From Eledone cirrhosa (Eukaryota), in assembly GCA_964016885.1 (NCBI GenBank), contig OZ024750.1:41850001-41914000 (forward strand): DNA of 64,000 nt. Direction: 5' to 3'. Position numbers and translations under genes: made by a program. The first letter of the stretch is position 1. Each line of letters begins with the position of its first letter. A model generated the notes under the pieces. It worked only from the letters and a program-made list of their open reading frames with translations, ran no database searches and was not told the origin of the DNA. This document shows, piece after piece, positions 3,295 to 3,718 of the stretch.

Positions 3295-3556
3295 TGCTCA
3301 GCCGTTAATTTTCATAAGGAAAGTATATACTTTCGAACGTTCAACTATCTGGCAGATGGGTATACGGTGCTGATGATAGCTAACAAGCTTGAAACTAGTA
3401 CATCGTTCCTGTGTCAGTGTTGAACAAAAAGGTGACGTGGTTGCCTTAACACCGTATGGCATAAATTCAGGCTGTTCAGTTTGTTTACAAACGAACAAAG
3501 CGGCGTTATAATAAGCGTCCGCTAAACTGATGCGTGCATATATGTATGTGTACCTG

Positions 3557-3612
<56 letters not shown>

Positions 3613-3718
3613 TGCTACTGTACGTCTGTATACATATATGTATGTACGTATACATACATACTTACATTTAAGTAAGTGCCATACTAAGAGTGAGAAATGA
3701 AATTTCGTTTTCATTTTA
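3295..3718 (+). mobile_element. Diverged monomer of the 422-bp hammerhead repeat (retrozyme-like)
   Basis: Colinear with the reverse complement of the 44541-47539 unit, in a different circular permutation. Confidence 0.8.
3351..3415 (+). ncRNA. Type I hammerhead ribozyme (retrozyme family)
   Basis: acggtg CTGATGA tagctaacaagctt GAAA ctag TA catcgt; palindromic stem III ACTAGT; GUA cleavage triplet at 3398-3400. Confidence 0.9.

Follow-up and report, generated by a model that had tools for sequence, protein, structure and literature searches.

Animal non-LTR retrozymes, known from coral, mussel and axolotl, are non-coding tandem repeats of 150–450 bp with a low GC content and a type I hammerhead ribozyme (Cervera and de la Pena 2020, PMC7229834). 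In the axolotl, a palindromic, weak helix III is known from HHR_Amex1 and a U-U at the base of helix II from HHR_Amex2, and the same account names Penelope-like elements (PLEs) as candidate mobilisers of retrozymes. Canonical and minimal hammerheads, as well as dimeric cleavage, are defined in PMC4209133. According to the account given in a 2020 review (PMC7761336), no motif in these repeats reveals the partner that moves them.

PLE insertions are 5′-truncated, have an adjacent inverted copy, often carry a tail of 30–40 bp at one end and lie in (TA)n targets (Craig et al. 2021, PMC8557442). The tail is the sequence between two internal reverse-transcription start sites, and uncleaved RNA is the main substrate for an anole PLE in vitro (Frangieh et al. 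2024, PMC11167929). A preprint on Xenopus retrozymes describes solo monomers and multimers and argues that animal retrozymes are non-autonomous PLE derivatives, on the basis of co-occurrence, homology to pLTRs and a tree, mainly in vertebrates; the anatomy of the insertion ends is absent from its argument as presented (Li, Clavereau and Pollet 2026, 10.64898/2026.07.22.740005). Only one of the nine dimers tested there cleaved, which calls for caution with the hammerhead described below. We found no published account of retrozyme insertion ends, which the supplements of PMC7229834 and of the 2026 preprint may hold, and no matching paper on hammerhead ribozymes in octopus or on retrozymes in cephalopods in a search whose coverage excludes most subscription papers.

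Here we describe a hammerhead-bearing repeat in the window, the whole 64,000-nucleotide (nt) stretch of Eledone cirrhosa DNA that was analysed, where it is present as a tandem array and as a single copy (hereafter referred to as the solo copy). Judged from the sequence, it represents a new animal non-LTR retrozyme family that was likely moved by a PLE as its candidate partner, a reading to which we give a probability of about 0.7. Like the retrozymes of coral, mussel and axolotl, to which it is likened by description and not by sequence match (PMC7229834), the repeat is a non-coding tandem unit of low GC content with one type I hammerhead, occurs in solo and multimeric copies and has a highly self-paired fold. 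Its hammerhead shares the palindromic, weak helix III of HHR_Amex1 and the U-U of HHR_Amex2, but unlike the axolotl forms it unites both weak helices in one ribozyme. The inverted head, the tail, the (TA)n target and the recurrent 3′ ends are absent from the description of animal retrozymes in PMC7229834. With PLE insertions, as described in PMC8557442 and PMC11167929, the repeat shares the 5′ truncation, the inverted copy, the one-sided tail, the (TA)n, the tandem copies, a hammerhead in the terminal region and, probably, two 3′ start sites, whereas it differs from them in having no reverse transcriptase (RT)/GIY-YIG frame, a tail of 59 nt instead of 30–40 and a canonical instead of a minimal hammerhead. 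Non-autonomous Chlamys PLEs such as MRC1 are likewise non-coding PLE parasites with multicopy head-to-tail insertions, but they belong to green algae and to a clade without canonical hammerheads, and their partner is known and has 3′ sequence in common with them (PMC8557442). In animals, finding another retrozyme with a solo copy is nothing unusual; the interest lies almost entirely in the PLE-type insertion ends and the tail motif, and not in the exchange of a stem I pair that an earlier, sequence-only reading of this DNA had put forward as hammerhead covariation.

The solo copy and the array consist of the following parts:
3232–3261, no strand: (TA)n target, left
3262–3296, − strand: inverted head, an exact reverse complement of solo 3633–3667, ending at site 1 against (TA)n
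3295–3667, + strand: forward, 5′-truncated copy of the unit, up to the recurrent 3′ site 1
3668–3726, + strand: one-sided tail of 59 nt, up to site 2 (about 44903), then (TA)n
3727–3793, no strand: (TA)n-rich target, right
44540–47539, − strand: tandem array of 7 units of 422 nt plus 46 nt, with 7 hammerheads

The solo copy, at 3295–3726 (+), is the only copy of the 422-nt unit elsewhere in the window. The sequence-only reading had regarded it as a diverged monomer of the array, 41 kb away and in the opposite orientation. The homology to the array unit (44540–47539, −) is borne out by blastn (E about 2e-73, with 73.6% identity over 424 alignment columns, gaps counted), as is the divergence, with 53 substitutions in 368 aligned columns. 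The copy is, however, not a complete monomer: a segment of ~50 nt, equivalent to about 44854–44903, is absent, and its end lies at 3726 and not at 3718. Site 1 corresponds to 3667 in the solo and to 44962 and 44540 in the array, and the junction between head and body is ambiguous over 3295–3297. No LINE lies alongside the solo, and four frames of the unit or the solo that were tested gave no Pfam match. The array unit has a GC content of 39% and one type I hammerhead in each of the seven units, and its circular fold has a predicted energy of −146 kcal/mol. At its 3′ end, the array stops at site 1 against (TA)n, without a tail, whereas its 5′ end directly abuts the 5′ end of a LINE, head to head, at 47539/47540. 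The array units differ from one another at one position only, where the two 3′-most copies (44799 and 45221) share a rare allele and the other five carry the family allele. An allele present in two adjacent copies and absent from five would not be given by one rolling-circle pass over a single circle; it would fit a template of several units, turnover of the DNA at a later stage or an assembly error.

The hammerhead of the solo copy is composed of these elements, all on the + strand:
3364–3406: type I hammerhead, a descriptor match and a weak Rfam HH9 match
3364–3369/3401–3406: stem I
3370–3376: core
stem II: U-U mismatch plus 4 bp, followed by GAAA
3394–3399: palindromic helix III
after A3400 (GUA): predicted cut site
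about 3351–3422: extended stem I, beyond a UAU bulge

The letters of stem I (ACGGUG/CAUCGU in the solo, ACGUUG/CAGCGU in the array), the core (CUGAUGA and CUGACGA) and helix III (ACUAGU and ACUGGU) had all been read correctly in both copies, and the core is indeed retained in the solo, with both versions fitting CUGANGA. The motif further has the GAAA, the UH, three helices and the open helix I of a type I hammerhead, whereas a U-U takes the place of the G10.1-C11.1 pair in 8/8 copies; the same variant is reported for HHR_Amex2, a ribozyme that cleaves (PMC7229834). A descriptor search found 17 hammerhead motifs in the window, compared with 1 match in 50 block shuffles, and a looser descriptor found 21, compared with a shuffle mean of 0.45. 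Rfam Hammerhead_HH9 matched the solo weakly (18.6 bits against a gathering threshold of 52, E 0.069), no Rfam hammerhead model matched one array unit, and none reached the gathering level across the window. Rfam miRNA matches on the solo and the unit were rejected as artefacts of the TA repeats. Taken in isolation, the hammerheads have no fold advantage over shuffled sequences (z −0.75 to 0.06), and the pair probability of the dimeric helix III in a nearest-neighbour fold of two units is 0.001. The exact hammerhead patterns had no match in metagenome contigs or viral contigs, and blastn against phages gave none.

For a view of the wider family, one array unit (44625–45020) was compared with four public contig sets (X1, X4, X5 and X7; four of the 24 listed) under an 80% filter that solo-type contigs may fail. 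No RNA set is among the runs listed, a point that carries no weight for expression. Allele shares in X1 are summed contig depths, a rough measure, and the low depth at 44835–44862, where array-private alleles cluster, was set aside. X1 contains 10,810 contigs matching the unit, with mixed flanks at the 3′ end, whereas X4, X5 and X7 contain 3, 4 and 31 in all, at low depth. Together with the two loci in the window, the mixed flanks in X1 establish the 422-nt repeat as dispersed and present in many copies. Words of the unit are also present in 20 runs under 17 organism labels, from either related species or trace DNA. At seven sites, helix III included, the compared array unit carries a minority letter in X1 (the other letter reaching 87–99.9%). 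On these shares, ACUAGU is therefore the family norm and the array helix III the deviant; the perfect palindrome noted in the solo was correctly read, and its letter stands at 99.9% in X1. The four alleles by which the solo differs within the minimal hammerhead are each present at at least 15% in X1. Of 50 solo/array differences, 17 are listed X1 variants and 33 are not, many of these lying in places at which the 80% filter would exclude contigs of the solo type, and loose ends of contigs in X1, X5 and X7 repeat solo-type segments. Because the four hammerhead alleles are common in X1 and solo-type segments appear in these loose ends, the solo is likely a member of a sister subfamily and not a decayed copy.

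The ends of the solo copy show the hallmarks of retroposition. The inverted head is 35/35 identical to its source, can be extended on neither side and carries solo-specific letters, and 5′ truncation is thus accompanied by an adjacent inverted copy. AT-rich or (TA)n target sequence is found at both solo ends, the array 3′ end and the loose ends of contigs. Site 1 recurs in X1, where 36 contigs with mixed flanks break off at 44962 and end in TA (agreement 0.58), the best supported of the six X1 loose ends listed; one contig each in X5 and X7 adds to it. Site 2 is represented by the solo end and by two X7 contigs that end at 44903 in (TA)n, and it does not appear among the loose ends listed for X1. 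Of the ten 3′-side loose ends listed (193 further loose ends fall outside the listing), four, as we read them, lie at the two sites, four are internal variant breaks, one is an inverted piece of the unit and one lies elsewhere (X4, 44640). X1 contains four inverted joints, no two of them at one place, and units joined head to tail are present in both X1 and X4. By contrast, 5′ ends on the monomer defined by cleavage fall at nt 325 (solo), 171 (array) and about 186 (head). Hence, 3′ ends recur at two sites, whereas 5′ ends vary. The sequence-only reading had proposed that start points are free circular permutations, and had named termini fixed in all copies as evidence against its view; the 3′ termini are indeed recurrent and only the 5′ ends are variable, so that free permutation becomes unlikely. 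Its proposal of independent insertion holds, given the different flanks, the shared subfamily alleles and the retroposition-type ends. Its idea of a circular or multimeric template stands on another footing than permutation: the solo spans nt 325–422 and then 1–275 of the cleavage-defined monomer and crosses the predicted cleavage site intact, and an RNA template would thus have been either circular through ligation or multimeric and uncleaved.

Insertion ends record the acting enzyme, and the PLE-type ends therefore bear on the mobiliser. At the solo and array loci the element is not an autonomous PLE: none of the 90 reading frames from the window combines an RT with GIY-YIG, and no such frame adjoins either locus. 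None of the 90 matches GIY-YIG, so no remnant of a PLE protein was found and the partner is unseen in the window. The only reverse transcriptases among these frames belong to two LINE pieces. These AP-endonuclease LINE pieces (47540–49752 and 5647–7358), which we take to be RTE-like, have long intact frames; the best homologues found for the LINE protein stand at 53–64% identity, none of them a close or named relative. The one abutting the array head to head (47540–49752) is cut within its RT and followed by a piece that ends in a hammerhead-like motif and (TA)n, and the two may possibly form one composite insertion. A search for the partner with five short motifs in the PMC8557442 supplement gave one match, which was coding and irrelevant, and visual inspection of the octopus Naiad and Hydra consensuses, at the 3′ ends displayed, revealed no same-sense tail motif or shared hammerhead.

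The exchange of G-U for U-G in stem I does not amount to covariation. In X1, the solo letter reaches 18.5% on one side of the pair but 40.2% on the opposite side, so that about 22% or more would have to be U-U, and we therefore rejected the swap as a change at a tolerant, non-Watson–Crick site. Nor is the hammerhead better conserved by rate than the rest of the unit, as the sequence-only reading would have required: substitutions between solo and array number 4/44 in the hammerhead and 49/324 elsewhere (Fisher p 0.36), variable sites in X1 number 6/43 and 25/353 (p 0.13, in the opposite direction), and a TA-rich hairpin region is equally conserved (7/94). A rate difference was accordingly discarded (p 0.36, 0.26). 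Selection on RNA structure, also claimed there, is upheld by other evidence. Of the 43 hammerhead positions, 12 lie outside both the invariant core and the Watson–Crick pairs, and all six sites that vary in X1 are among these 12 (P 1.5e-4; 8e-4 when the array-private site is left out; 0.02 when the wobble pair is counted as constrained). No core variant reaches at least 5% in X1, and this 0/11 is by itself not significant (P 0.15 to 0.40). Moreover, when the fold predicted from one copy is mapped onto the other, fewer pairs are broken than by random substitution (P 0 to 0.006 in 6/6 runs), whereas the opposite strand gives P 0.36 and 0.57; under a stricter null with positions fixed, P ranges from 0.014 to 0.27. 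On the hammerhead strand, the non-repetitive half also has a better predicted fold than its shuffles (z −2.9 and −3.7, compared with −1.7 and −2.3 on the opposite strand). Double compensatory changes between solo and array were not in significant excess (P 0.07 to 0.33). Selection on RNA structure across the whole unit, on the hammerhead strand only, is thus supported by these fold models, and the changes that most clearly affect both sides of a pair are located beyond the ribozyme, in two predicted elements:
3454–3461, + strand: 5′ strand of a long-range helix, predicted to pair with 3677–3684
3499–3523, + strand: hairpin kept in both copies despite high divergence

In the helix 3454–3461/3677–3684, two pairs are changed on both sides relative to the array (U-A to C-G and A-U to U-A), with pair probabilities of 0.63–0.99 in the solo and of 0.86–0.99 for seven pairs in the array circle. 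The hairpin has one two-sided change in sequence-only alignments and three if aligned by structure, a post hoc count.

The anatomy of the solo is repeated by four insertions of three further families in the window:
2867–3240, − strand: family B insertion 1, made up of an inverted head, a forward copy and a tail, with minimal hammerheads at 3054 (−) and 3139 (+)
3785–4167, + strand: family B insertion 2, with minimal hammerheads at 3886 (−) and 3982 (+) and a tail of about 87 nt
51276–51683, + strand: family C insertion, with a 109-nt inverted head (99%), forward copy and 66-nt tail with motif and terminal hairpin
34711–35088, − strand: family F insertion, with inverted head, a forward copy whose hammerhead lies at 34919 and a 34-nt tail

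As in the solo, each of the four is bounded by (TA)n on both sides and begins with the inverted head, followed by the forward copy and then the one-sided tail. Tail lengths are 34, 59, 66 and about 87 nt, one of which fits the published 30–40 bp. The two family B insertions are 91% identical, lie in opposite orientation and flank the solo as a large inverted repeat; a third, tail-less family B copy lies at about 7401–7585. The retained part of the family C insertion lacks a hammerhead; the hammerhead of family F looks canonical, with a long stem I. In the array unit and in families B and C, CAGYCNTACWAA occurs 5–13 nt past the first end, a motif defined post hoc. Because these 12 nt were derived from families A, B and C, their ten exact matches, all in the tails of A, B and C, are no test of the motif. 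Only family F was held out, for the first seven letters: found later and not used for the motif, it has CAGYCNT 8 nt past site 1 (chance about 0.004). The solo tail holds the motif position and a terminal hairpin, and departs from the motif at two of the first seven letters, of which one has a compensating change in the long-range helix. The hammerhead-like pieces at 38554, 50080 and 51798 showed no tail motif at their ends when inspected by eye. We tentatively propose, as a possibility short of an even chance, that these features are a Penelope-type footprint on an animal retrozyme, in which two fixed start sites bracket the tail and CAGYCNT(ACWAA), common to otherwise dissimilar PLE-type ends in the same genome, would serve as a signal allowing several non-coding RNAs to make use of a single PLE protein; its position in the compensated long-range helix could gate access. 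If so, the tail motif would be the conserved handle that these repeats are said to lack in the review's account (PMC7761336). With the two start sites and the motif, precise substrates are at hand for the PLE assay published for in vitro use (PMC11167929).

By analogy with PLE insertions, the solo was likely inserted by a PLE reverse transcriptase and GIY-YIG endonuclease acting in trans. Tandem copies would be transcribed on the hammerhead strand, and paired hammerheads would cut the RNA through a dimeric helix III, yielding monomers that may be ligated into circles. The PLE protein would then nick (TA)n and start cDNA at an internal position, nt 216 or about 275 of the cleavage-defined monomer, and the cDNA would stop variably, leaving the 35-nt head, about 370 nt of the solo or the one or more units of the array. 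The helix III of the solo is probably too weak to cut well alone, and the intactness of its core thus likely reflects selection in the source lineage and not at this locus.

Identical end anatomy would be expected if the unit were the pLTR of an autonomous PLE, the solo its ordinary 5′-truncated insertion and the array a local, DNA-level expansion of the pLTR. The homology of Xenopus retrozymes to pLTRs and the tandem growth from a terminal repeat proposed in the preprint (10.64898/2026.07.22.740005) agree with such an origin, as does the allele common to two adjacent array copies, which suggests DNA-level turnover. We nevertheless consider it unlikely: no reading frame adjoins the solo or the array, structure is conserved across the whole unit, and the share of X1 running into unlike sequence is 0, within the limits that short contigs set to this test. 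Moreover, the hammerhead is of the canonical retrozyme type, with a 6-bp helix I, a 4-bp helix II and an extended stem I, whereas the PLE type is minimal with a long helix II (PMC4209133), as in families B and D here.

The recurrence of the 3′ ends makes it improbable that a circular RNA was copied from arbitrary starts, with copies that are free circular permutations. The solo does cross the cleavage junction and its ends differ from those of the array, and the X4 loose end at 44640 lies outside both sites (among the ten 3′-side loose ends listed, with 193 further loose ends outside the listing); but the head, the array and contigs of three runs share site 1, the solo and X7 share the second, the solo is shorter than one unit, and the inverted head would be left without explanation. 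Least probable of all is that the repeat moves with the neighbouring AP-endonuclease LINE, or is a DNA satellite with hairpins kept by DNA-level conversion. The contact of the two 5′ ends at 47539/47540 and the abundance of inverted repeats in the window speak for it, whereas array and LINE stand head to head with no common 3′ end and no LINE lies beside the solo. Against it, too, pairs are conserved on the hammerhead strand only, and variable positions of the hammerhead fall outside its core and its pairs.

The window holds further hammerhead-like sequences and repeats. Those at 50080 (+), 56699 (−) and 4420 (−) have a palindromic helix III and loop II inserts of 90, 95 and 53 nt, respectively. 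Family D, with a minimal hammerhead at 51700–51917 and about 4679–5236, has the stem I letters of family B, and its second copy (about 4679–5236) is interrupted by another repeat just past helix III. Inverted repeats are frequent in the window, and they include a nested inverted duplication (93–99%; 37929–39784 versus 41070–42946, and 39704–40456 versus 40597–41345) with a hammerhead near each outer end (38554 − and 42312 +) and tandem repeats of 195 nt and 80 nt inside. Homogeneous minisatellites occupy 9839–11725, 18922–23873, 27757–28692, 60203–61289 and 62129–64000, with units of 51, 84, 72, 48 and 16/32/48 nt, respectively, and two of the five carry long stop-free frames.
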